Shown here: piece after piece, positions 5,810 to 61,001 of the stretch
How the letters are laid out: every line of letters begins with the position of its first letter
Numbering within the stretch: position 1 is the first letter of the stretch
From: Eledone cirrhosa
Taxonomy: Eukaryota
NCBI GenBank assembly: GCA_964016885.1
Contig: OZ024740.1
Coordinates: 300,142,001-300,206,000, forward strand
Direction of reading: 5' to 3'
Length of the DNA: 64,000 nt
The notes under the pieces: model-generated
The model's database searches: none
What the model saw: only the letters and a program-made list of their open reading frames with translations
Told to the model about the DNA's origin: nothing
Translations under genes and position numbers: made by a program

Positions 5810-5850
5810 GCAGACACTATTGTTTCGGGTTGTTTATCCTTCATCAGTAC
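5810..5850 (-). ncRNA. Minimal type I hammerhead ribozyme motif with a 10.1/11.1 mismatch, in a pLTR-like fragment
   Basis: Minus strand reads gta-CTGATGA-A-GGATAAACAACC-C-GAAA-CAATAGTG-TC-tgc: intact core, stem III ACA/TGT, GUC triplet, 3-bp stem I. Confidence 0.65.
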
Positions 5851-6621: not shown

Positions 6622-6624
<3 letters not shown>

Positions 6625-6805
6625 CGAAGGAAATTTGGTAAGTAACCAGATGGACCATAACGCACCAAAGTACTCAATAATTAGGGTAGTAGAGTGGGTA
6701 ATAGGAACAAGTATGACCCCGACGACAGAGCTCAAGCCGTTTCGACGGCTAATTTGAATTAGCCGTCGAAACGGCTTGAGCACTGCCGTCGGGGTCATAC
6801 TTAAT

Positions 6806-6810
<5 letters not shown>
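6622..6810 (-). mobile_element. Fold-back mini-element derived from the 3' end of the Naiad-like PLE at 58-61 kb, in (TA)n
   Basis: 54-bp inverted arms 6701-6754/6757-6810 plus unpaired 6622-6700; homologous to the reverse complement of about 60831-60963; (TA)n on both sides. Confidence 0.85.
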
Positions 6811-6876
<66 letters not shown>

Positions 6877-6959
6877 GCAAATTTGAACAGGAACAAGACA
6901 GAGAGGTACTACAATGAATGTTTATTAATTTCACGCTCTTGAGAGTGGGGTGGTGGTGG

Positions 6960-6997
6960 GGAACGACGTTTCGGGCATAAGCCCTTCTTCAGGTGAA
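6960..6997 (-). ncRNA. Minimal hammerhead ribozyme motif
   Basis: CTGAAGA-A-GGGC-TTAT-GCCC-GAAAC-GTC: intact core, 4-bp helix after an A.C mismatch, palindromic ACGT stem III. Stem I is only about 2 bp. Confidence 0.6.
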
Positions 6998-8419
6998 AAG
7001 TGTGTGGGAAGAGAGTTCAAAGGGTGTGTAGGGGAGTGGTGGAGAGACACATAGCAAAAGGGGGGTGGGAGGAAACGGTGCAAATGAAATTAAAAATAAA
7101 AGCATGATCAAATTAAAATTAAAATGGGGTAAAACAGGTGGTGGAAGGGTGTGGGGCGTGTAGGGGTTGTGTCGGGTGGAGTGGGTAGAGGGAGACGGGG
7201 TGTCCGAGCGGGGAGGGCTGAAGGTGGTGTGTGTGTGTGTGGGTGTACGTGTGTGTGTATGTGTGTATGTGAAAGCAAGGGTTGGGGGAAGAATGGGGTT
7301 GCATGTTCAGGAAGAGGTGTGTGTGGGGTGGGGTGTATGTCGGAGTGTGTGTGCGTATGTGGATAGAGGGGTGGGGGGAGAGGAATCCGGAGGCTGAATG
7401 TGTAAATATGTGGTGGAGCGCACGTGTGTGTGTGGTGTTTAAGCGTGTTGTAGGTGTAGGTGGCGTGTGGGAAAAAAATGTTGTTTGGATGTGTGTGGGT
7501 GAGTCATAAAGGTGATTCCGTAAGAAGATGTGGTGGAATGGTTAATAAAATCCTAGGATGGTGGTTGATTCCGCGGTCAATGTCCACATACGTGTAATCG
7601 GTGAAGAGATTGGTCGGAAGAGGGGAGATGTGGGGTGCGCGCGCAACAGGAAGTGGTCAAGGCAGTAGGAGTGCTGTGTGTGCTGGGAGGTGGTCAGAAG
7701 GCATAGCAGCAGTAGGGTGGAATGGTAAAGGGGAGAGGATGGGTAGGTGTGAAAGTTGGAGTGAGGAGGGGAGGGTGTGTGTGTGTATTAGTAGAGGTGT
7801 TAGTGGGATGAATGAGTGTTTGAGAAAGGGTGTGGGTGGAGCGGGGAGAGAAGGGTGTGGGGGTCGATGGAGGGAGTGTGGTGTACTGGTGTGTGTGTTG
7901 TTTGATGAAGGGGGTGTTAGTGGGTGTTAGTATACAGGAGGTGGAGAAAGGGTTGAATGCGGGTGTGAGTGGGGGTCAGTGGTGGTAGGGTGTGTAGAGT
8001 TGGTGGTGTAAGAGGGTGTGTGTGTACGTGTGCGTGGGGTTCGGGGTGTTAGTGATGTTAGTTGCGTGTAGGGTGGGTGGTGTAACTGGGTGCGTGTGCT
8101 CGTGTGCTTGGGGTCAGGGGGTGTTAGTGATGTTAGTTGCGGGGTTGTGGGGTGGATGTGTGGGGGTGAGGGTTAGTGGTGGTAGTAGGGTGTGTGTTTA
8201 GTGTGAGCGCGTGTATGTGTGCCGGTGGGTCTGTGAGTGTGATAAGGAGGGGGGAGGAGAAGAAGGGAGGGATGTTAGTATGTTAGTTGGGGAAGGGTGG
8301 TCGGATGTGGGGTGGAGTGGAGGTGTTAGTATTGTTAGTTGTGGGGTGGGCGGTGAAAAGGAGGGGTGTCTTAGTGGTGTTAGTGGGGGATATGTGTGGG
8401 GGCGGGGGGCGGTCGAAGG

Positions 8420-8690
8420 CTAAAGGAATAAGGGTGGGGAGTTCAGGCCGGGGGGAGTGTGGGTATGCAAGATGAAGATGGTTCGTTGTTCAACTCTTAG
8501 GAGATTGGCGGGTGTTCCGTGGCATTGGAGTAGGCCACAGACTGTGGGATGGCGTGCAGAATGTCTAGGGGCACAAAAGTGGCGGGCGATGGGGGAACTA
8601 CCACCGAGACGAATATCCCGGAGGTGCTCAGTGAATCTGTCCGCCAGGCGACGTCCAGTCTGTCCGACGTACCAAGTTGTGTCGGGGGTA
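8420..8690 (-). pseudogene. GIY-YIG endonuclease C-terminal fragment (PLE)
   Basis: Manual translation, absent from the ORF track: PDTTWYVGQTGRRLADRFTEHLRDIR...PIARHF...VEQRTIFILHTHTPPGLNSPPLFL*, showing the YVG-T-R-L--R--EH and P-GLN motifs. Confidence 0.85.
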
Positions 8691-8759
8691 GAGTATGGGC
8701 ATGTTTTATTTCATATAGAAATGACCCGTAAATTCTCTGCAGGTATTTTTCCTGACCAA

Positions 8760-10250
8760 TTATAGACACATACCCATAATATCGGTGGGGTAACGTTTCC
8801 CGCTGGACCCTTCGGAGGAACCCCATTTCAACGGCTTGTAATCGCGATGGTATTATTACGGTTATTACACAAGATTTACGACCATAGGCAAGTGCTGTTA
8901 CCAATATGGAAATGTGGATAATGAGTTTGGGTTTTACACATACCTCCCTCCTTCTGGATACCCATTGCTGAAGCTGACGCATTACTTCACCAGCTCCTTC
9001 AATCTTACATATAATGTAGTCTCCTGACTTCCATCACACTTGAACATGGCCCATAGATACTTGTCCATCTGCTTCAGTGGAACTCCATTCCCATGTAGAA
9101 TGCAGTGCACTTGTTTGCCACAGTACTGACTTTCATTCCATGAAACATTCGACAGAAAATCTGCGAGTGCAAGTCGGAGATCAACTTCTGTCGACTTAAG
9201 TAACACCATGTAGTAAGCAAATTCCAGCCGACTGAATTTACACCAACAAGTCGTAACACCACTTCCAAACCGGCTGCGCATGTCAACCCTGTTCATGAAA
9301 ATAATGAATAGAAGAGATGAAGGTACGCACCATTGGTGAAGTCTATTTCTCAAATCTAATAGCTTCTATTTAGCACCATTTATGCGAAAACAAACACTCC
9401 CGAATCCATATAGAGAGATCAGGGCGGCAGGAAGCTGACCATCAAACAAATATTGTTGCGCAACATTCAACAACAGCCCGCATGGGACGCAGTCACATAT
9501 CCTTTCGAGGTCTACAAAACAAATATATATATCTCGAAATACTCACATGATTTCTCGAATAGCTGCCGCAGTGTGAATATTTGGTTGGATGTGCTGCCTC
9601 CGAGGCCAAATCCACAGTGTTCGCCAGCTAACTCGTGAATCTCCCTGCATCTCTTTGCCGGAGGCTGAACAAGGCGATCTCTCTGTAATTGGAATAATCA
9701 CTCTTGTCTCCCTTTTTGAAAATTGAGATTATCACTCCGGATTGTTTTTGCTAAGGTGTCTTTCAATAGATCCAGGCAACCCGGCACACGAGTCGGCAAG
9801 AGAATACCTTCTCTGTTTACGGCTTTTAATATCTTGGGTCGGATTTCATCTTCCCCCAATGGCCTTACCGCCTTTGAGCTCTTTAACTGCGCATGTGACC
9901 TCAACCTTTGAGTGATTAATTACCGCTCTCAGATGCACCTCGTGTACATCAGAATATTCTGTTGTGATCGGGTTTAGGAAATCAGCAAAGTATTCTTTCC
10001 ACCTCGTGAGGATGCATGCCTCTGAAGAGATGAGAAGTCAAGAGGCGTTCTAGATACCAGATGTGGTGGAGGACTTCTTATTACGAAGTCGGCAGATGAT
10101 CTGGTTGAAAACTTTATTTGCTGATATAAGTCTGTTTCCAGCTTAACCCAAAATGTGAACGACTTTACTGTCTCTGCTGCAATTCTTCATACCTGCTTGC
10201 ACCACAAGAGCAAAAAGGAGGATTTACATAAGTCCAGCTTTGTAAGCCTC
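8760..10250 (-). mobile_element. Decayed RTE/RTE-X-clade LINE reverse transcriptase fragment
   Basis: ORF-track pieces GEDEIRPKILKA, SSLLFIIFM, LEFAYYMVL (degenerate FADD), and LAYG...SRLQAVEMGFLRRV. Confidence 0.75.
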
Positions 10251-16009: not shown

Positions 16010-16235
16010 ATAATATTAATTTCTACTACAGACACAAGCCCAGCAATTTGGGGAGAGGGGGGAAGTCAATTAAATCGACCTCAGTGCATTACTGGCGCTT
16101 TATTGTATCGAACCCGTAAGGATGAAAAGTAAATGTAACCTCGGCTGGAGTGGAACTCAGAACATAAATGGTCGTAACTCTATGCCGCAACGAAGGATAG
16201 TGTTCGACACTCTAACGATTCTGTCAATCCACATA
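16010..16235 (-). mobile_element. tRNA-derived SINE copy (diverged)
   Basis: Reverse complement shows gagttccactccagccgagg...ttttcatccttacgggttcgata...ggcttgtg and an ATT tail. Confidence 0.75.
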
Positions 16236-17952: not shown

Positions 17953-18142
17953 TAATTGTTTCTACTTTTGGCACAAGGCCAGCAATCACCCAGTACATTA
18001 CTGGTACTTTATTTTATCGACCCGTAAGGATGAAAGGCAAAGTTAACCTCGGCGGGATTTGAACTCAGATCATAAAGGGACATAACTATGCTAGACAGCA
18101 TGGCGTCCGACCCTCTACCGATACTGCCAATCCACCGCCCTT
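17953..18142 (-). mobile_element. tRNA-derived SINE, same subfamily as 46350-46540
   Basis: Close reverse-complement match to 46350-46540, including the B-box-like GAGTTCAAATCC. Confidence 0.9.
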
Positions 18143-23719: not shown

Positions 23720-24180
23720 CAAAGAATCAGTGTTTCATCATATAAACATTTAATTATATATTACATACTTTTCACTGTCGATCAACTTGAGGAACGATCT
23801 ATTAATGATCGAACCTGACTCTGAAATCGTAAGCTCTTCAGATATGTGATAACATGTAGTCTCTTAGATGCGAATCTACATGTAAACACATACCTGAGGT
23901 GCTTATAATTCCAGACTCAGGTTCGAACAATAATCAATCGGTTTCCAAGGTGATCTACAGTGCAACATATGTAATATGTAATTAAATATGTATATGATGC
24001 AACATTGAATCTCTATTCCCTTATATATATATATATATATATATATACATACATATTTATATATACATACATATTTATATATGTATGTATATATATATAT
24101 ATATATATATATAAGGGAATAGAGATTCAATGTTGCATCATATACATATTTAATTACATATTATATATGTTGCACTGTAC
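23720..24180. repeat. Double palindrome: three copies of one unit in alternating orientation
   Basis: About 23720-23860 is a diverged inversion of 23875-24015; 23956-24022 is a near-perfect inversion of 24112-24179 around a self-complementary TA spacer. Confidence 0.85.
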
Positions 24181-24181
24181 A

Positions 24182-24227
<46 letters not shown>

Positions 24228-26382: not shown

Positions 26383-26579
26383 ATATGAAAATGTTCAAGA
26401 CCCCGACGGCAGAGGTGAAGCCGTTTCGACGGCTATTTCTGTCCAGATATAGCCGTAGAAATGGCTTGAGCTCTGCGGTCGGGGGTCTTGAACATTTTCC
26501 TATTAGCCGCTCTATTACCCTAAGTATGGAGTACTCTGGTGTGTTATGGTCTATCTGGTTCCTTACCACACTTCTTTCG

Positions 26580-26582
<3 letters not shown>
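26383..26582 (+). mobile_element. Second fold-back mini-element of the Naiad-like family
   Basis: Arms 26383-26441/26444-26503, then unpaired 26504-26582; (TA)/(GA)n on the left and (CA)n on the right. Confidence 0.85.
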
Positions 26583-26636
<54 letters not shown>

Positions 26637-26924
26637 CATATATATATATACATATATATATATACATATATATAAGTGTGCGTATACGTTTGCGTGCGTG
26701 TGTGCGTGTGTGTGCATGCGTGCGTGTGTGCGTGTATGTGCATGCGTGTGTGTTTGTATGTCTGCATATGTGTATATTAAGTATCCACTAGGTAATCATA
26801 CCAATATTGTGTGAGTGTATGTTCACTTCGATTTGAATATCAAAATGCTATTTTCCTCACTTCGAAATTAAAACATTGTATCATTTGAAATACCATCTAA
26901 TTTAAATGACTCTCATTATAGATT

Positions 26925-27092
26925 ATCGGTAGATGGTCGGACACCATGCTTTGACGCATAGAGTTACGGCCCTTGCAATTCTGAGTTCAAATCCCGCCGA
27001 AGTTAACTTTGCCTTTCATCCTTACGATAAAATAAAGTACCAGTAATACACTGGTTATTTGCTGGCCTTGTGCCAAAAAGTAGAAACAATTA
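26925..27092 (+). mobile_element. tRNA-derived SINE copy
   Basis: ctgagttcaaatcccgccgaagttaactttgcctttcatcc...ggccttgtgccaaaaagtagaaac. Confidence 0.85.
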
Positions 27093-29616
27093 TAGATGAG
27101 ATATTTTAAATAAAAGAAACCCACTGAAGCATTAAAAATAATTATGAGAAAGTCATTCAGAATCTTTCTTACTGAGATTGAACCATGAAATATACGAAAT
27201 ATGCACTTGAATATCATTCAATCCTTTGTCATTGATGCTATTGTTATTGTTGTTATGATCGTATGGATATAGGGAACTCTGTTATTTCACTAAAATACGT
27301 TGTGCTGTGCCATCGCACATCTGATTTTGTATTCGCCGTTTTGTTTTATAGCCCGGTTTTAGGATACTGAAATAGAATCATGATCAAAGGATTTGTTTCT
27401 ATCACAGACCATATTTTAGGTTTATGTTGGATATAATAATTCATGCTTTATTCTTAGTGTATTGAATCGATGATAATAATATATACAGTGATAATTCTAA
27501 TCAACAGATATATAATCGAAGTAATGCAATAACAAAGAAATACGTTTTAATAAACACACACTGGGTATGCAGAATTCGTTTGAATGACCAGTTAAACGGG
27601 AATAATAGTCCGAATAAATTGAAACAAGAAACAAAAGAAAAATATTTTGCAAATCTCTTTTTCCGCCATCACGTTTTTCTTTCAGGAAGTGAACTACAAA
27701 GTGAAAATACAACATGTGTTATATAGATTTCCATGACTCCAACAAGTGTATTTTATGGGATTATTGTATTTCGATTTTCTCAGTGTTTTAATCCATTATT
27801 ACACTAATTATATCACAATTAAAGTATTAATAAAATGGCTTTATTTTAAGAATGTAACTTACGAACCTTTGCTTCCATTAGCGACTCGCATTCTTTAGTC
27901 TGCATTTAGAGTAAGTGAAAGGAGGTTTGATATCACGTAATGCTATTAATACGTAATTAAGTATGTTTAATATAGACGTGGAATAATAGGGTTGGATATT
28001 ATAGAGATTACATTGATAGTTTATGAATAGAAATTGCTACCAAAATAAACATCTTGTGCTCAATAATGAAGTGTTTATTTTCTGGTGTTTGAAATATATA
28101 TGATTGTGAAATGATGTAGGTCTTCAGCAGCACAAGGATGCAAGTTAACTGCAATGAGTTTGTCCTATATTACCCAACATATTCAGATATTAAATACAAT
28201 TATCTTTGTGAAATGATTTCGAATATGTTTTATATTGTACCATTAAAAGCAATCCGACTTTTAAAAACGTAGGCAATTCCAGATATGTTAAAGAGGTGAA
28301 GCATTAATTAATATCACCGATATAAAATCAAGACTCAATGGTGAAATAGGGCCAATGTCGATTATTATCGATACTAGTGGCTTTCCACATGTAGCCACTT
28401 TTATTTTCGGTTTTCAAAGCCCAATTGCTTCAATGAACAATGATATACACTTGATGCTAAGAGTAAATTACCGTCTTATGGGCTTACTCCATTAAGGCTG
28501 TAATTGTTTCATACTACAGTGCCTATGACAATTATGTCGGTATAATTTGATAACGTCATTGTAATGGTATTAGACCCTAGGGAAAAGGAGGTGGTCGGCA
28601 TCGTTCTAAAGGAATACAATGTGGAGAGAGTAACTGGGTCATATTTGAAGTCCTACAAATCGGTATCTAAAGAAGCAAGTACAAGCCGTCGGACAGCGTC
28701 TTGGGTCACAGGACAAATGAGCTTTGCAAGGAATCTGGTCTGATTCTAACTTCTAACTTGACAGAAACTGGGTCGTGGTAACTTGCAAAGAAGCCAAACA
28801 CACACAGCAACTGGCTTAGTGAAACTTTTCGAAATTAAGTGTAGAATAGGCTAACGTGTTTATTGCTTCCGTTGCATACCGCTTCTCTCTCTTGTCTCTC
28901 ATCAGGTTTCATGTGATCTGATTGGAGCTTCACCTCTTTCGTCTCCTGTCTGAGATATGCGTAGAGTGACGAATCTTTCCTGTACGCACTCATCGAGTTT
29001 CCTAGTATTGCCCACTTTGGGGTTTATGTCGAATGCCATCTAAGACTATAGTGAAAATTATCCCGCCGCCTAACTTTAGCTTAGAATGACCGGTAGGTTT
29101 TATCTATGTGGTGTCTTTGGCAAAAGGATTCGTGTACTCGGCACGTTTGATAGGATTGCAGATAAGCACTTTATACTTCGGCAAAGCTCTGATTGCCTTT
29201 TTCAGTTTTAACTTGAAGACGAAAATGATGCTGGAGGGTGAAATACTACCTTCCAGCCTATTTGTTAAAAGGTAGGTTAGAGTGCAAGAGAGCATGGCTC
29301 GACTAGATGGGCCTGCTCTGTGTGTGTGCCTGTAAATTAAGGAGGACAACTTAGAGAGGGCACTTGTTCTAGTAGTCAGGATGACCGTGGCATTTTCTAT
29401 GCTTTCTCCACCCTCGACCCTCAAAACCACCACCGCCATTGGGAATTGAGTTTTGTTTGAATGTTTGTACACGTCTTTCATTGTTTCCTTGTTTATGTTA
29501 AAACGTATTTACAAAATCCACACTATACCGTCCTGTAGTGTTTTACACCATCGCATATGCCACCTTGCACAATGCTCTGCCGTCCTTAATGTTTTATTAA
29601 TGTGAGCCCTGGATTA

Positions 29617-29803
29617 GCCATATCGGCAGAGTTTCGGACACTATGCTTCGCGGCTTACCTACGTCCCTTTACATTTTGAGTTCAAATCTCACCGAGGTTA
29701 ACTTTGCCTTTTATCTTTACGCGGTCGACAAATTAAAGTACCAGTAAAGCAATGGAATCGATTTAATCGACTTTCCCCCTCCTCTTCAAATTGCTGTCCT
29801 TGC
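29617..29803 (+). mobile_element. tRNA-derived SINE copy, 3' end joined to a Tx1 ORF1 relic
   Basis: gagttcaaatctcaccgaggttaactttgcc...gtcgacaaattaaagtaccag. Confidence 0.8.
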
Positions 29804-41864: not shown

Positions 41865-42255
41865 TCACATGGAAGGTGAGGTGAGGGTGGAGAGAGAAGC
41901 CCCCCCCCTTCAGTACATTTGCTAAAAGTTGGATGAATGTGATGAGAGTGGCTAGTGTGAGTGGGCCTACTCTAACCATGCGCCTATAGGCTGGCTAACT
42001 TGAGGAGGAGATGGGTGCTCTCCCCGGGTGCCCTACAAGCACCTGAGTCACCCCTGGGTCATCCACCCTCCCTATTGGGGAATTTATTTTGTTATATTTA
42101 TGCATAGTTTATTTTATATCATTTTACATTTTCATTGTTAAATTAGTCTTGCTATTGTGCAACATTACTCGACCTTATTGTAAACCCCCACTGTCCCTGT
42201 CTTTGTATTGTCCCCTACATGTCGGCCCTTGTGGTCAATAAATGATATCATTATT
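41865..42255 (+). mobile_element. Tx1/L1-clade LINE 3' end
   Basis: Ends ctgtccctgtc...ggcccttgtggtcaataaatgatatcattatt; similar to 13925-14250. Confidence 0.5.
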
Positions 42256-42256
42256 A

Positions 42257-42372
42257 TTGAGTTCAAATCCCGCCGAGGTCAACTTTGCCTTTCATCCTTA
42301 CGAGGTCGATAAAATAAAGTACCAGTAATGTACTGGGTATTTGCTGGCCTTGTGCCAAAAGTAGAAACAATT
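42257..42372 (+). mobile_element. 5'-truncated SINE
   Basis: gagttcaaatcccgccgaggtcaactttgcctttcatcc...gtagaaacaattatt. Confidence 0.9.
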
Positions 42373-44054: not shown

Positions 44055-44946
44055 TTGTTCTTTGAGTCTCAGTCATTGATGTTAGTTAACTGGAAAGTTT
44101 GTTGAAATGAATATCAAGCCACTACCTGCAGTCTCAGATATTCAGGACGTATCGGAGGGTTCTTGCTGTTCACAGCAAGCATGCCTTTGAAGCGTTCCAA
44201 AAAGCGTGGCGGGGCCAATTTTCTTTAACCATCCCTGGAAACTTTTTGAGATAGTACCTAGTGCGCCTATGACAATCGGGACCACTTTGACTTCAGGCAG
44301 TTCCAAATGCTTTTTACCTCCCACTTTAAGTCCTGGTATCGGTTAATTTTCTCCCTCTCCTTCTCTTGCACTCTCGTGTCGAATGGGCAGGCCACATCCA
44401 CAATCAGGCACGATCTTTTTTCCTTGTCCAAAACCACCAGGTCAGGTCTATTGTGTTCCAGTTTCTTGTCTGACTGTATCCTAAAAATCCCACAGCACCT
44501 TCACCTGATCGTTTTCTATTACCGCCTCTGGCTTATGCTCATACCACTTCTCAGAATGTGGTAAATTGTTTACTTTGCATAGGTGGCAGTGGATCACCCT
44601 GCCCATCACATCATGTCTCCAGCCCTGGGCTAGGTGTTTACACTCGAATACAATGTGAGCCACAGTCTCCTCTCTCTCTCCACAGATCCTGCACAGTGGG
44701 CTAGCCTCCCCCATGTAAATATGGTGTTTCAACCACTGCTCTTGCGCAGCCATTAACATTCCTTCTGTAGCCTTTTTAAGGTCTCCTCTTTTTTTCAACC
44801 AGTTCCATGTCTGTGGATCTCTGAATTCAGTTTTCTCAAAGAAGGTACTATGAAGGGATTTTTCATGAAGGCTGCTCTTTCTCCTTGTTTACATTTCCTC
44901 CTTGGCCATCGCCTGGTCTATTGTCCTCTCCTTCAGTACAATTCTG

Positions 44947-44948
<2 letters not shown>
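44055..44948 (-). mobile_element. R4/Dong-like LINE 3' fragment, same subfamily as 46560-49104
   Basis: Shared 3' UTR and LKKATEGMLMAAQEQ..CRICGEREETVAHIV; (TAA)n at both ends. Confidence 0.9.
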
Positions 44949-46349: not shown

Positions 46350-46540
46350 TAGGGTGGTAGATTGGCAGTATCGGTAGAGGGTCGGACGCCATGCTTTCCA
46401 GCATAGTTACGTCCCTTTACGATCTGAGTTCAAATCCCGCCGAGGTTGACTTTGCCTTTCATCCTTACGGGGTCGATAAAATAAAGTACCAGTAATGCAC
46501 TGGGTAATTGCTGGCCTTGTGCCTAAAGTAGAAACAATTA
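46350..46540 (+). mobile_element. Full-length tRNA-derived SINE in (TTA)n
   Basis: A-box-like TGGCAGTATCGG, B-box-like GAGTTCAAATCC, core gcctttcatccttacggggtcgataaaataaagtaccag, ATT tail. Confidence 0.9.
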
Positions 46541-46559: not shown

Positions 46560-49102
46560 TATTCCTTGAATCTCAGTCATTGATGTTGGTTAACTGGAAA
46601 GTCCGTTGGAATGAATATCAAGCAACTACCTGCAGCCTCAGATATTCAGGACGTATCGGAGAGTTCTTGCTGTTCCCAGCAAGCATGCCTTTTGAAGCGT
46701 TCCAAAAAGCGTGAAGGGGCCGATTTTCTTTAACCATCCCTGGAAACTTTTGGAGATAGTCCCCAGTGCGCCTATGACAATCGGGATCACTTTGACTTCA
46801 TGGCAGTTCCAAATCCTTTTCACCTCCCACTTTAGGTCCTGGTATCGGTTAATTTTCTCCCTCTCCTTCTCTTGCACTCTCGTGTCGAAAGGGCAGGCCA
46901 CATCCACAATCAGACACGATCTTTTTTCTTTGTCCACAACCACCAGGTCAGGTCTATTGTGTTCCAGTTTTTTGTCCGTCTGTATCCTAAAATCCCACAG
47001 CAACTTCACCTGATTGTTCTCCATCACCGCCTCTGGCCTATGCTCATACCATTTCTCAGAATGTGGTAAATTGTTTACTTTGCACAGGTGCCAGTGGATA
47101 ACCCTGCCCATCACATCGTGTCTCCAGCCCTTATAGTGGGTCTGGGCTAGGTGTTTACACTCGGACACAATGTGAGCCACAGTCTCCTCTCTCTCTCCAC
47201 AGATCCTGCACAGTGGGCTAGCCTCCTCCTTGTAAATATGGTGCTTCAACCACTTCGTTTTGAGGGCCTGCTCCTGCGCAGCCATTAGCATTCCTTCTGT
47301 AGCCTTTTTGAGGTCTCCTCTTCTCAACCAGTTCCATGTCTGTGGATCTCTAAATTCAGTTTTCTCAAAGAAGGTACTATGAAGGGATTTTCCCTTAAGG
47401 CTGCTCTTCCTCCTTGATGTTATTTCCTCCTTGGACATCCCCTGGCCTACTGTCCCCTCCTTCAGTACAGTTCTGAGCATTGGCTCCTTACTATAGGTCA
47501 CGTATTTGTATAGGTTGTTTTTCTCCATCTGAACACAGTCCTCTATGCTGATAAGACCTCTTCCACCCTCAGATCTCCTTAGGTAGAGTCTATCGACATC
47601 ACTCCTCTCGTGGAACATGTTGTAGATAGTCAATAGCTTCCTAGTCTTCCTATCCATTTCTTTTTGTTCAGCAACATTCCATCTCAGAATTCCCGCACTG
47701 TACCTAATAATAGACACAGCTCGGGAATTTACTGCGCTTATGGCATTTCTGCTGTTCAGATGTGACTTCAATACGCTCCTTACTCTCCGAATGTATTCAG
47801 TTCTTAACAATTCCTTCATTTTTTTGTTCTTTATGCCATCAGCCTCCAGAACGCCCAAATACTTGTATCCTTCCTCAGAGTCAATTTCCTTTATCATCTC
47901 ACCTGTTGGTATCTGGATCCCGTTACTTCTGCTCAACCTACCCCTCTTCATCACAAGGACTCCACACTTACTAATACCAAACTGCATACATATATCACTG
48001 CTGAAAATACGGAAAGTGTCAACAAGCACATCCAACTCCTTCTCACTTTTCCCGAAGAGCTTAAGATCGTCCATGTAGAGGAGGTGATTGATGGTAAGCT
48101 CTCCCCTTCCCAACTTGTATCCTGCTCTCACTTTTCGCAGCATAATGGTCAAGGGCATCAGGGCAAGGACAAACAACAGAGGGGACAGGCTATCTCCCTG
48201 GAAGATACCTCTCTTGATCTTCACGCTTCCCAAGGATACTCCAGTTGATGTCAACTCTGTCTCTCAGGACCCCATACTCCTGCCTAGCAACTGTCTGATG
48301 TTATCTGCCACCCTGAAGATCTCCAGGCTTTTGGTGATCCAGGAATGAGGCACCATGTCAAATGCCTTTCTGTAGTCTATCCATCCCATGGCAAGATCAG
48401 TGTGTCTCCTCCTGCAATTCCCCATTACCATCTTATCAATAAGCAACTGGTCCTTTGTACCACGTGACTTCTTTCGGCATCCTTTCTGTTCGTCCGGTAA
48501 CAAGTTGTTTGTGTGGAGGTGATGGTAGATTTCCTCAGACACAATGCTCGTCAACAGTTTCCACATTACGGACAGACATGTGATAGGTCTATAGTTGGTA
48601 ACATCATTACCCTTGATTCGGTCTTTCATTATCAGAACTGTGGTACCTTTTGTCAACCACTCTGGCACCTCACCCGACACCAAGCAGTCATTGAACATGG
48701 CCGTCAGCTTCGGGTGGAGGGATGTTAAATGTTTAATCCAATACCCCTGCACACCATCTGGGCCTGGTGATTTCCAGTTGGTTAGTTTTTTGGCCTGCCC
48801 CTTAAGAGTTTCAACTGTGATACTCAAATCAGTTTGTTGTTGTGCCTGCTCACCGATCTCCCTCTGTACTGTCTCAATCCACCCTGCCTGGGCATTGTGT
48901 CTAACATCCTGCTCCCATATTCCTCTCCAGAATGTTTTAGTTTGTTCCGCCCCAGGGATCAAGTCGTTGCCTCTTTCTTTCCCCTCAAGCTGTCCAAACA
49001 GCATCTTCTGGTTGTTGTCGAACATGCGGTTCTGTTTATACTGACTGACTCTGTTCTCGTATCGCCTGATTTTTGCACTCTTTGCTACAATGCGTTGCTT
49101 CA

Positions 49103-58213: not shown

Positions 58214-58230
58214 TATAGGAAAAGGTATGA

Positions 58231-58325
58231 CCCCGACGGGAGGGCTCAAGCCGTTTCGACGGCTATTTCTGGACTAAATTAGAATTTTTAGCCCGGTGAA
58301 TAAATAGCCGAACTTGTCAAGAGGG
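58231..58325 (-). ncRNA. Hammerhead motif (U3-A8 variant), copy in the inverted arm
   Basis: Minus strand reads ccctc-TTGACAA-G..CGGCTATTT...AAATAGCCG.C-GAAA-CGG...CCG-TC-gggg. Confidence 0.7.
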
Positions 58326-59144
58326 TACTCCCTTATATGGGAAGATTGTAGTTGTCAAGAAGATTGGTTAAAATTTGTTGTAAACAAAAATAAGTCTATC
58401 ATGGCATTTGGTGGGAGGTAGGGGTGGCCTAACTTGCCTGTAGAACAATAGGGGAGTGAGTGGAGCGGTCTAGCGTTCAAAGTGATATGTATACAGCAGA
58501 TTCTAAGGATAGTGTATGAAGTAGAGCAGGAAGGTTATAGAATAGGTAAATCGAATGAGAGTAGGAAACAATAATAGATAATAGAAAGAAATAAAAAAAT
58601 AAAAAATATATATAAAATTAGAGAGTGAGAAATGAATAAAAAAAAATCACAATGCTATCTTACAATTACAGGTTAATAAGTTCAGAATAGAAAAAAACTT
58701 GTAGAAATTGAGTAGTACCACAACTAATACAAAATTAAAGGGGTTTAACACGTCTGCTATAAGTAGTTAGTAAAATATATTCGGCCAATTCTATCTTAAA
58801 ATTACAGGGGTGGGGGAACTGATGCTACAGAGGCGCGATGGACTGCATCAGGGTAGGCGAAAGGGGAAAAGCAGACCAGGAAGAAAATAGGGGGTGGAAG
58901 GAAGTGATAGGATGAGACAGGTGGAAGAAGAAGACAAAGAAGAAAAGAAAAGAAAAGAGATATATCTACGTAAGTAAGCTGTGGTTTTCCCTAACTTATT
59001 CGGCAAGTGTGGGGGGGGGGATCATCCCTTGTCTACCCACCCACGTCGTTATGGGGTTTGAGGGCGAGTTATGTCCTACGCAATCTGTGTTTGCATTCGG
59101 TTACCAGTTCGTCTTTCTTGTTTAGAAGTTGCTCCTTCGAAAAC

Positions 59145-60093
59145 GATCTGTACTACCCATACAGGAAACCAAACGACAACCTGCACTATATCCACCGCCG
59201 TTCTACCCATCCTAGAAACATTACCAATAACATGCTTAAAAACATCTCCCTCCGCATATCTCGTTTGTCTGCTAATGAGCAGTTATTCGACGAACACGCG
59301 CCTCATTACAACCAGACCCTCAAGCGGAGTCGCTTCCGGGAGGAAATATGCTTTTATCCCGCTTCCCTTAGCGGAACCAGCAGGCGACACCGCCGCTCAC
59401 GCAACGTAACGTGGTTGAATCCTCCCCATAATGCCGAGGTGGCAACACCTATCGGGAAAATCTTCTTTAGACTCCTCGAAAAACACTTCCCACTACAACA
59501 CCGCTACCACAGCATAATCAATAAAAACACCATCAAACTCTCCTACAGCACCACACCTAACTTTGCATAAAACATCATCTCCTCAAACAACAAAAACCTC
59601 AACCCCTATGGAAGAAATTACCTAGACATCAGTGGAGAGCCGACCAGGAGGTGTAACTGTCCTGATAGATCTACGTGTCCCCCTCAACAATAAATGCCGA
59701 GAACGTAACGTGATCTACCAGTGCAACGTGAGGACGGACACCTCCAACAAAGCTTATATAGGATTAACCGCGTGTGACTTCAAGACCCGGCTCTACCAAC
59801 ACCGACATACTTTCCGAAACACTGTCCGGCGACATGCCACCACACTTTCGGGCCACATCTGGGACCTCCAAGATAATAATATAACCTACAATCTCACTTG
59901 TGGCTTACTGTCCAGAGCTAACTCTTACACGGGAGGACGCCGTCCGTGTAACTTATGCTCAGAGGAAACATTCCAAATGTTGTTTTCGAAGGACCAACTC
60001 CTAAACAAGAAAGACGAACTGGTAACCGCATGCAAACACAGATTGCGTAGGACTTACCTCGCCCTCAAACCCCATTACGACCCGGGTGGGTAG
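59145..60093 (+). pseudogene. Naiad-like ORF C-terminus (RT thumb, Cys motif, GIY-YIG) with one stop and one frameshift
   Basis: PYRKPNDNLHYIH..STHP, RNVTWLNPP, EKHFP..H, NKNTIKLSYS, CNC....CPL...C, VIYQC..YIGLT..FKTRL..H..F, CNLC.EE, LLNKKDE...CKH. Confidence 0.9.
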
Positions 60094-60774
60094 ACAAGGG
60101 CTGATACCCCCCACTTGCCGCATAAGTTAGGGGAACCCCAGATTACTTAGGTAGATGTATCTCTTTTCTTTTCTTTTCCTCTTTGTCTTCTACTTCCCCC
60201 TGTCTCATCCTATCACTTCCTTCCACCCCCTATTATCTTCCTGGTCTGCTTTTCCCCTTTCGCCTACCCCGATGCAGCCCAGTTCCCCCACCCCTGTAAT
60301 TTTAGGATAGAATTGGCCGAATACGTTTTACTAACTACTTATAGCAGACGTGTTAAATCCCTTTAATTTTGTATCAGTTCTGGTACTACTCAATTTCTAC
60401 AAGTTTTTGCTATTCTCAACTTATTAACCTGTAATTGTAAGATAGCATTGTGATTTTTTATTTATTCATTTCTCACTCTCTAATTTTATATATTTTTTAA
60501 TTTTTTATTTCTCTCTATTATCTATTATTGTTTCCTACTCTCATTCGATTTACCTATTCTATAACCTCCCTCCTCCACTTCATACACTATCTTTAGAATC
60601 TGCTGTATACATATCACTTTCAACGCTGGACCTCTCCACTCACACCCCTATTGTTCTACAGGCTAATTCAGCCACCCCTAACACCCACCAAATGCCATGA
60701 TAGACTTATTTGTGTTTACAACAAATTTTAACCAATCTTCTTGACAACTACAATCTTCCCATATAAGGAAGTCC

Positions 60775-60868
60775 CCTCTTGACAAGTTCGGCTATTTATT
60801 CACCAGGCTAAACATTCTAATTTAGTCTAGAAATAGCCGTCGAAACGGCTTGAGCTCTGCGGTCGGGG
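60775..60868 (+). ncRNA. Type I hammerhead ribozyme with U3-A8 core and 56-nt stem II
   Basis: cctc-TTGACAA(60779-85)-stem II CGGCTATTT/AAATAGCCG with inner GGCTAAA/TTTAGTC-GAAA(60842-45)-stem III ACGGC/GC(G)GT (GCCGT in sister copies)-C-gggg; GUC triplet ends at 60864. Confidence 0.75.
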
Positions 60869-60962
60869 TTATACTTTTTCCTATTTCCGACTCTACTATC
60901 ATAAGTATTGAGTACTCTTGTGCGTTATGGTCCATCTGGTTCCTTACCACAATTCCTTTGTT

Positions 60963-61001
<39 letters not shown>

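Follow-up and report, generated by a model that had tools for sequence, protein, structure and literature searches.

Introduction

In EN+ Penelope-like elements, an inverted, 5'-truncated copy with a one-sided tail of 30-40 bp is the standard arrangement according to passages of PMC8557442 and PMC3846280, and self-priming was already proposed in 2013 from palindromes at the junctions (PMC3846280, Discussion). The internal start of reverse transcription (RT), the tails and the inverted copies are named as open in the relevant parts of PMC8557442 and are answered in part by PMC11167929. The sections of the latter on PAc, a Poseidon element of Anolis (Frangieh et al. 2024), report two internal RT starts in vitro that bound the tail, cutting and extension of both target strands, and the use of uncleaved RNA. 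A second point of reference is the Hydra clade (Craig et al. 2021, PMC8557442), which section 11 of that paper defines by a GIY-YIG endonuclease (EN) at the C-terminus that lacks CCHH and by a CxCX5C linker, and for which an inverted copy truncated at the 5' end is recorded in Penelope-13_HM. For LINE-1, twin priming is mentioned in part of 10.1101/2024.12.14.628481.

Here we describe three fold-back insertions in the window, by which we mean the whole 64,000-nt stretch of Eledone cirrhosa DNA that was analysed. The fold-back architecture alone is ordinary textbook matter and the clade is known. Apparently new and undescribed is a paired, predicted stem-loop motif that lies a few nucleotides downstream of both ends of such elements.

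Results

Three insertions share one arm end and a 79-nt tail

The insertions comprise one large and two mini copies, with the following parts:

58215..59144, reverse strand: inverted, tail-less arm of the large copy, 930 nt, a copy of 59982-60884
59145..60963, forward strand: tail-bearing, 5'-truncated body of the large copy, a Hydra-clade Penelope-like element, 1819 nt
60882..60884, forward strand: site 1 (TAT), the fixed terminus of inverted arms and a putative RT start, located 5 nt before motif 1
60885..60963, forward strand: 79-nt tail of the large copy, whose end GTTA is site 2
6622..6810, reverse strand: mini fold-back with tail 6622-6700, motif 1 at 6695-6669 and arm 6756-6810
26383..26582, forward strand: mini fold-back of a variant subfamily with its arm from 26383, motif 1 at 26509-26535 and tail 26504-26582

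The preliminary description had reported that these insertions combine a common inverted endpoint with an unpaired 79-nt tail, and re-alignment confirms this: the arms end at 60884 or its equivalent, the same base in all three (CCTAT, or CATAT in the 26-kb copy), 20 nt past the predicted hammerhead site C60864. All three tails (60885-60963, 26504-26582 and 6622-6700) measure 79 nt, with pairwise identities of 67-68 of 78-79 positions. In the large copy, 58215-59144 aligns with the reverse complement of 59982-60884 over 931 columns at 90.8% identity (56 substitutions in 902 columns), leaving an unpaired middle of 837 nt between the arms. A (TA)n tract precedes 58215, and the 3' flank consists of (CA)n followed by (TA)n. 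The 6.6-kb mini is flanked by (TA)n on both sides and turns at about 6755 in AATT-TG-AATT, a near-perfect palindrome, while the 26-kb mini, with an arm of about 26383-26441, turns at about 26440. Both turns fall inside hammerhead helix II. At the junction of the large copy the flanking codons read E-N, as they do in a few relatives, and this junction may hide microhomology.

The two minis differ in their junctions and in their subfamily letters, and each pair of arms carries letters of its own. In the large copy, 6 of 19 family-rare letters (40 of 776 rows listed) are common to both arms, which points to either one template or later conversion.

The insertions belong to a Hydra-clade element

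Three coding remnants precede the 3' end of the large copy:

59145..59570, forward strand: RT thumb remnant, YYPYRKPN...WLNPP...IKLSYS, broken by a stop, with 50 relatives at 35-49% identity
59652..59678, forward strand: CxCX5C linker CNCPDRSTC with a frameshift close by, the same pattern as in relatives
59710..60093, forward strand: C-terminal GIY-YIG endonuclease remnant with VIY at 59710, YIG at 59755, CNLC at 59947 and CKH at 60031

Judged by domain order and motifs, the element is a Hydra-clade Penelope-like element present as dead copies. The RT thumb (59145-59570) precedes linker and endonuclease (59652-60093), which places the endonuclease at the C-terminus. The endonuclease core has a single Cys between VIY and YIG, and CCHH is thus absent; CNLC..E and N..CKH correspond to the CxxC and CxH around E and N of the Hydra clade. 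A predicted hammerhead in the pLTR and insertion into (TA)n are likewise Hydra features. The window copy is 5'-truncated and lacks the core RT, the RWK/DKT region being missing; in relatives of 35-49% identity, YRDD, thumb, linker and endonuclease follow in this order and both RWK and DKT are present. The closest relatives form units of about 2.4-2.5 kb. An HMMER search returned 3926 proteins. Pfam named no family for the RT or endonuclease piece, a word-index protein search with the endonuclease piece gave no match, and a protein scan of viral contigs revealed no locus.

The earlier identification as a Penelope-like retroelement with a hammerhead holds, the ribozyme being a predicted one with a three-helix pattern. 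The label 'Naiad-like' has to be replaced: a Naiad would need an N-terminal GIY-YIG, CCHH and no canonical hammerhead, none of which fits a copy with a C-terminal GIY-YIG, a CxCX5C linker, no CCHH and a hammerhead. Naiad elements resemble the present one in their (TA)n targets, inverted copies and tails, and differ in the N-terminal endonuclease, the presence of CCHH and the absence of a canonical hammerhead. A Naiad RT further carries DKA and IFD, in a region that the 5'-truncated window copy lacks and where the closest relatives have DKT. Neptune, for which the corresponding part of PMC8557442 gives a CX2-5CxxC linker and a CCHH endonuclease, was rejected since the window copy has neither. 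A MITE, as a uniform unit with terminal inverted repeats at both ends, was set aside as well: here one end carries an unpaired 79-nt tail and the junctions differ.

The hammerhead itself was read from the sequence:

60773..60869, forward strand: predicted type I hammerhead, U3-A8 core variant, core at 60779-60785

Its helix II (about 60786-60841) is very long, with folding z-scores of -3.9 and -4.4, and is followed by GAAAC at 60842-60846 and a predicted cut after C60864. The U3-A8 variant is described in a passage of PMC4209133. Rfam returned only sub-threshold matches on the window, mostly microsatellites and hairpins, and no hammerhead family; an exact-pattern scan for the core in viral and metagenome contigs yielded 0 loci. 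With the Hydra clade the element shares, as far as the pertinent parts of PMC8557442 describe it, the C-terminal GIY-YIG without CCHH, the linker, the hammerhead and the (TA)n targets. It differs from Hydra-1_Obim and the other Hydra consensus sequences compared, as published, in its hammerhead and 3' end; its U3-A8 core with the very long helix II is a further difference.

In relatives, a predicted paired stem-loop lies between hammerhead and ATG

Related loci (the best 80 of 497 metagenome loci; short-read contigs, some of them sisters) contain a bulged stem-loop, GCUC-Y...R-UN-GAGC-ACU, that occurs in tandem pairs between the hammerhead and the ATG. The pattern GCTC-N-GAGCAC matches 84 times in sense and 3 times in antisense orientation in 48,767 nt of UTR-side sequence (48 of the 80 loci), compared with 2 matches in 116,127 nt inside ORFs and a mean of 0.8 in shuffles. 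The four GCUC/GAGC pairs were selected by the search pattern and are no evidence of structure. Such evidence comes from a pair left out of the selection: it covaries (UA 14, CG 10, other 1; n=25) and is Watson-Crick in 38 of 41 held-out loops, a count that 0 of 20,000 shuffles reach. The two-base bulge opens with U in 39 of 41 loops. Spacing between the two copies is 59-83 nt over 28 pairs, sisters included. The base after GCTC is C in all 22 second copies and T in 16 of 22 first copies. TAT is found within 10 nt upstream of 33 of 44 motifs, where the background is 22%. Since relatives have their ATG downstream of motif 2, a candidate ORF start inside the tail, the ATG at about 60917, was rejected.

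Rfam, applied to 10 of the 80 loci, gave 0 matches. Of six novel Hydra consensus sequences, inspected by eye in the published material, four contain the motif itself or a variant of it, a fifth stops short of its position, and in the sixth, Hydra-1_Obim, only the 5' halves are present; the Hydra-1_Ajap consensus starts 2 nt before motif 1 and contains both motifs. Neither the motif nor a Hydra stem-loop was found described in the literature searched, which comprised neither Repbase and figures nor papers behind a subscription; figures S1-S2 of PMC11167929 and bioRxiv supplements may bear on novelty. The PMC11167929 supplements do not mention the motif terms, nor do the passages of PMC8557442 consulted mention the motif, although its consensus file contains the paired stem-loop.

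Most mapped element ends in relatives lie 0-5 nt before a motif copy

Ends were mapped from repeats within one contig only, at 33 loci, of which 14 reaching a contig end were set aside. The remaining 19 loci end inside their contig, 17 with a motif match and 2 without. Of the 17 mappable 3' ends, 13 lie 0-5 nt before a motif copy (p ~1e-11 against an assumed 8% chance), six of them preceding the first motif (L007, L019, L046, L054, L059, L068) and the other seven preceding motif 2 (L006, L020, L041, L057, L058, L074, L077). The other four (L061, L065, L066, L069) are off the motif, with offsets of -27, -62, -83 and -211. The six tail-less ends stand in direct orientation after a whole ORF, in short-read contigs that may stitch different copies. 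L033 reproduces the architecture of the window: its arm stops 3 nt short of motif 1 and its body 4 nt short of motif 2, and its tail is 74 nt long, compared with a motif spacing of 75 in its sister L027.

The first motif is also recognizable in the window:

60890..60916, forward strand: motif 1, ACUC-U...A-UU-GAGU-ACU, top match of model R2 (E 0.0004)

Model R2 was built from relatives only, with the window copies excluded, and ranks the window tails as its top three matches in the 64 kb (E 0.0004, 0.0008 and 0.014; next 0.51). The window motif begins 5 nt beyond the arm end. At 60890 an A-U replaces the closing G-C pair of the relatives; of the three window motifs, two close with A-U and that of the 26-kb copy with G-U. 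By themselves, the window motifs have no folding advantage over shuffles (z from -0.6 up to 0.1). Motif 2 of the window family was not seen; site 2 is predicted to lie 0-5 nt before such a second, putative motif in the template RNA.

Several relatives display further arrangements around (TA)n. A second Hydra element in L077 (2953-5552, reverse strand), outside the 13 ends counted, is arranged tail-to-tail with the first, separated from it by a single (TA)n tract; its end lies 2 nt before its own motif 2. Two families each contribute a tail-less end in L054 (2450-2653), where the ends oppose each other with (TA)n between them, at 4 and 5 nt from the respective first motifs that follow in the full elements. 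L001 has (TA)n inside the element at about 454-472, 5 nt before motif 2, which looks like a tandem junction.

The same two ends and many turns occur across the family

Four of eight listed sequence runs, X1, X3 (contigs), X6 and X7 (both raw reads), were compared over reference 59625-60974. Among the 24 of 1617 loose-end rows listed, two ends dominate the reads family-wide, in line with the fixed arm end claimed before: one behind 60884 (175 contigs in X3, 3529 reads in X6, 3346 in X7, 1 in X1) and one behind 60963 (227 contigs, 7386 reads, 8598 and 4, respectively), each followed by a (TA)n consensus. Before position 60834 the loose ends form a heterogeneous set (agreement 0.42). A 5' end at 60865, as expected from a hammerhead-cut template, is not found among these 24 of 1617 rows, and hammerhead-cut RNA was rejected as template on this ground. 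Loose ends with an ordered consensus at 60869-60876 and at 60951 indicate subfamilies that have both termini in common and vary around helices I/III and close to where the tail ends; an end resembling the variant of the 26-kb mini is represented by 64 contigs of X3 (row 60869).

Of 15 joints listed (84 in all), 10 change strand, at varied places. They fit a head-to-head geometry (7 with the exact reported overlap, 3 off by one letter) and are identical in both raw-read runs. The fold-backs are thus genomic and turn at many places, in agreement with the variable turn-around noted earlier. Microhomology is lacking in 6 of these 10 (of 84) joints and sums to 10 (random P 0.15), with 4-5 nt at one joint. 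Without an excess of microhomology, a template jump or end joining suits the joints better than annealed self-priming.

Depth over the last 130 nt exceeds that at 60750-60794 by a factor of about 16 in X3 and 18 in X1, the rise being measured up to 60840-60884; depths in runs are no copy numbers. The step lies inside helix II and implies that very short copies dominate, in agreement with the abundance suggested before. On either side of 60884 the depth differs about 1.1-1.3-fold in X3, X6 and X7 and in the reverse sense in X1; the difference is not 2-fold.

Other features of the window

The 3' part of a different Penelope-like element, likely of Neptune type, lies at 6873-8760 (reverse strand). 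It contains a GIY-YIG remnant, WYVGQTGRRLADRFTEH, a canonical hammerhead core at 6992 and an AC-rich 3' region, and ends in the (TA)n tract common to the 6.6-kb mini, with no motif match there. About 8790-10000 (reverse strand) is a decayed reverse-transcriptase-like remnant that we take, by eye, to be RTE-type. An isolated hammerhead-like core, CTGATGA...CGAAAC, occurs at 5847 (reverse strand) with no element recognised around it. A young inverted duplication at 23953-24182 (112-nt arms, 96%), centred in a TA-rich microsatellite, is unrelated to the fold-back element. The window further holds a direct repeat of about 900 nt (44062-44948 and 46566-47477; 89.7% identity, 2.5 kb apart) and a dispersed family of about 185 nt and SINE-like size with 75-95% identity (17957-18141, 26924-27093, 42251-42369, 46351-46536, 29610-29802 and 16021-16232).

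Discussion

We consider it probable that the insertions are 5'-truncated copies joined head-to-head and that their two fixed ends are RT starts, each set by a predicted stem-loop 0-5 nt downstream. Tail ends must be starts and, as the arm ends share their offset and signature, both are likely starts. In this twin initiation, a protein, possibly a dimer, would cut both strands of a (TA)n target. One target 3' end would prime before motif 2 and yield the tail-bearing cDNA, the other before motif 1 and yield the tail-less cDNA, and TA/UAU pairing may help the priming. The template would be one uncleaved RNA or several RNAs from one source. Both cDNAs would end prematurely, mostly inside the long hammerhead helix II, the likely stall point for the minis, and would be joined head-to-head via a template jump or an end joining that needs little homology. 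The tail length would then equal the motif spacing, about 79 nt here. The minis would then be dead ends of independent origin: a copy formed in this way does not retain the motif from which it was started. A more specific version can be put forward tentatively, at somewhat less than even chance: the two tandem hairpins might each dock one protomer of a dimeric RT-endonuclease and so fix the start a few nucleotides upstream, a single RNA giving rise to a pair of cDNAs, one on each strand at a (TA)n break.

The preliminary description had explained the hairpins by cDNA snap-back and self-primed synthesis halting at a defined position. As a whole its interpretation is partly supported: the fixed end holds, whereas the halt is the weaker reading given the same offset before two motifs. 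In an elaborated form, the cDNA would start before motif 2, fold back and copy itself until stopped before motif 1 by a bound protein or RNA, and its end would anneal to (TA)n via TAT. We regard this as unlikely. Both motifs are preceded by the same offset and TAT signature, six tail-less ends stand in direct orientation (contig stitching being possible), the fold-back joints have no excess of microhomology, a passage of PMC8557442 places the tail at either end, and the part of PMC11167929 on PAc reports two initiation sites in vitro. Snap-back keeps this much weight because of the unseen motif 2, the polarity of the arms, the palindromic junction, the unphased contigs and the lack of a 2:1 depth step. 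Specifically, in none of the three window copies, nor in L033, is the tail-bearing arm the shorter one, as snap-back demands and counter to twin initiation; the 6.6-kb junction is palindromic, and PMC3846280, in its Discussion, took palindromes at inverted junctions as self-priming. The 6 of 19 rare letters common to the large-copy arms also agree with it, but twin priming on one template predicts the same.

Twin initiation places the motif in the template RNA. That it would instead be a DNA-level recognition or resolution site of the endonuclease, with the ends as cut points rather than RNA starts, appears improbable. PMC8557442 attributes the tail, in the passage concerned, to endonuclease-mediated resolution, a need of the tail for endonuclease recognition is cited in part of PMC11167929, and tandem junctions with (TA)n tracts just before motif 2 occur in L001, L025 and L064. 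Against this, the motif is strand-specific (84 versus 3), its bulge is one-sided with covarying pairs, and at ends adjoining unrelated host DNA it is not part of what was copied, from which we infer that it acted on the template. Finally, minis amplified as such as non-autonomous, MITE-like units, or fold-backs that arose only later, through another insertion or a rearrangement, are very improbable: short copies far outnumber long ones and all three insertions sit in microsatellites, but the minis differ in junction and subfamily letters while each arm pair shares its own, heterogeneity is seen in the loose ends before 60834 (agreement 0.42) and the large-copy arms have rare letters in common, so that of the term 'MITE-like' only the shape is retained.

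As far as the cited papers describe EN+ Penelope-like pLTRs, the present element shares with them the head-to-head inverted 5'-truncated copy, the one-sided tail and the palindromic junctions. Its tail, 79 nt here and 74 nt in L033, is about twice the textbook 30-40 bp and matches the spacing of the two motifs. PAc is alike in several respects covered by the relevant sections of PMC11167929: two RT starts that delimit the tail, cleavage and extension of both target strands, AT-rich targets, an upstream dispensable hammerhead and a predicted dimer. In PAc these starts lie inside the ORF in an AC-rich stem-loop, whereas the Hydra sites lie upstream of the ATG, each immediately before its own copy of the clade-wide motif.

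Twin priming of LINE-1 likewise involves cDNA primed from both target strands. Its product is an inversion that lacks a duplication and arises at an internal site whose position varies, whereas the two sites of the present copies have fixed positions close to the 3' end and one arm is a duplicate of the other.

If the version with docked protomers is true, telomerase's sister group would possess an RNA element that positions the template, for which telomerase template positioning is a candidate comparison, and the motif pair would serve as the molecular ruler for both tail and inverted repeats. A paired motif of 25-35 nt at a fixed offset from both ends makes the control of the RT start directly testable and provides a sequence handle for annotating the ends and minis of Hydra elements.
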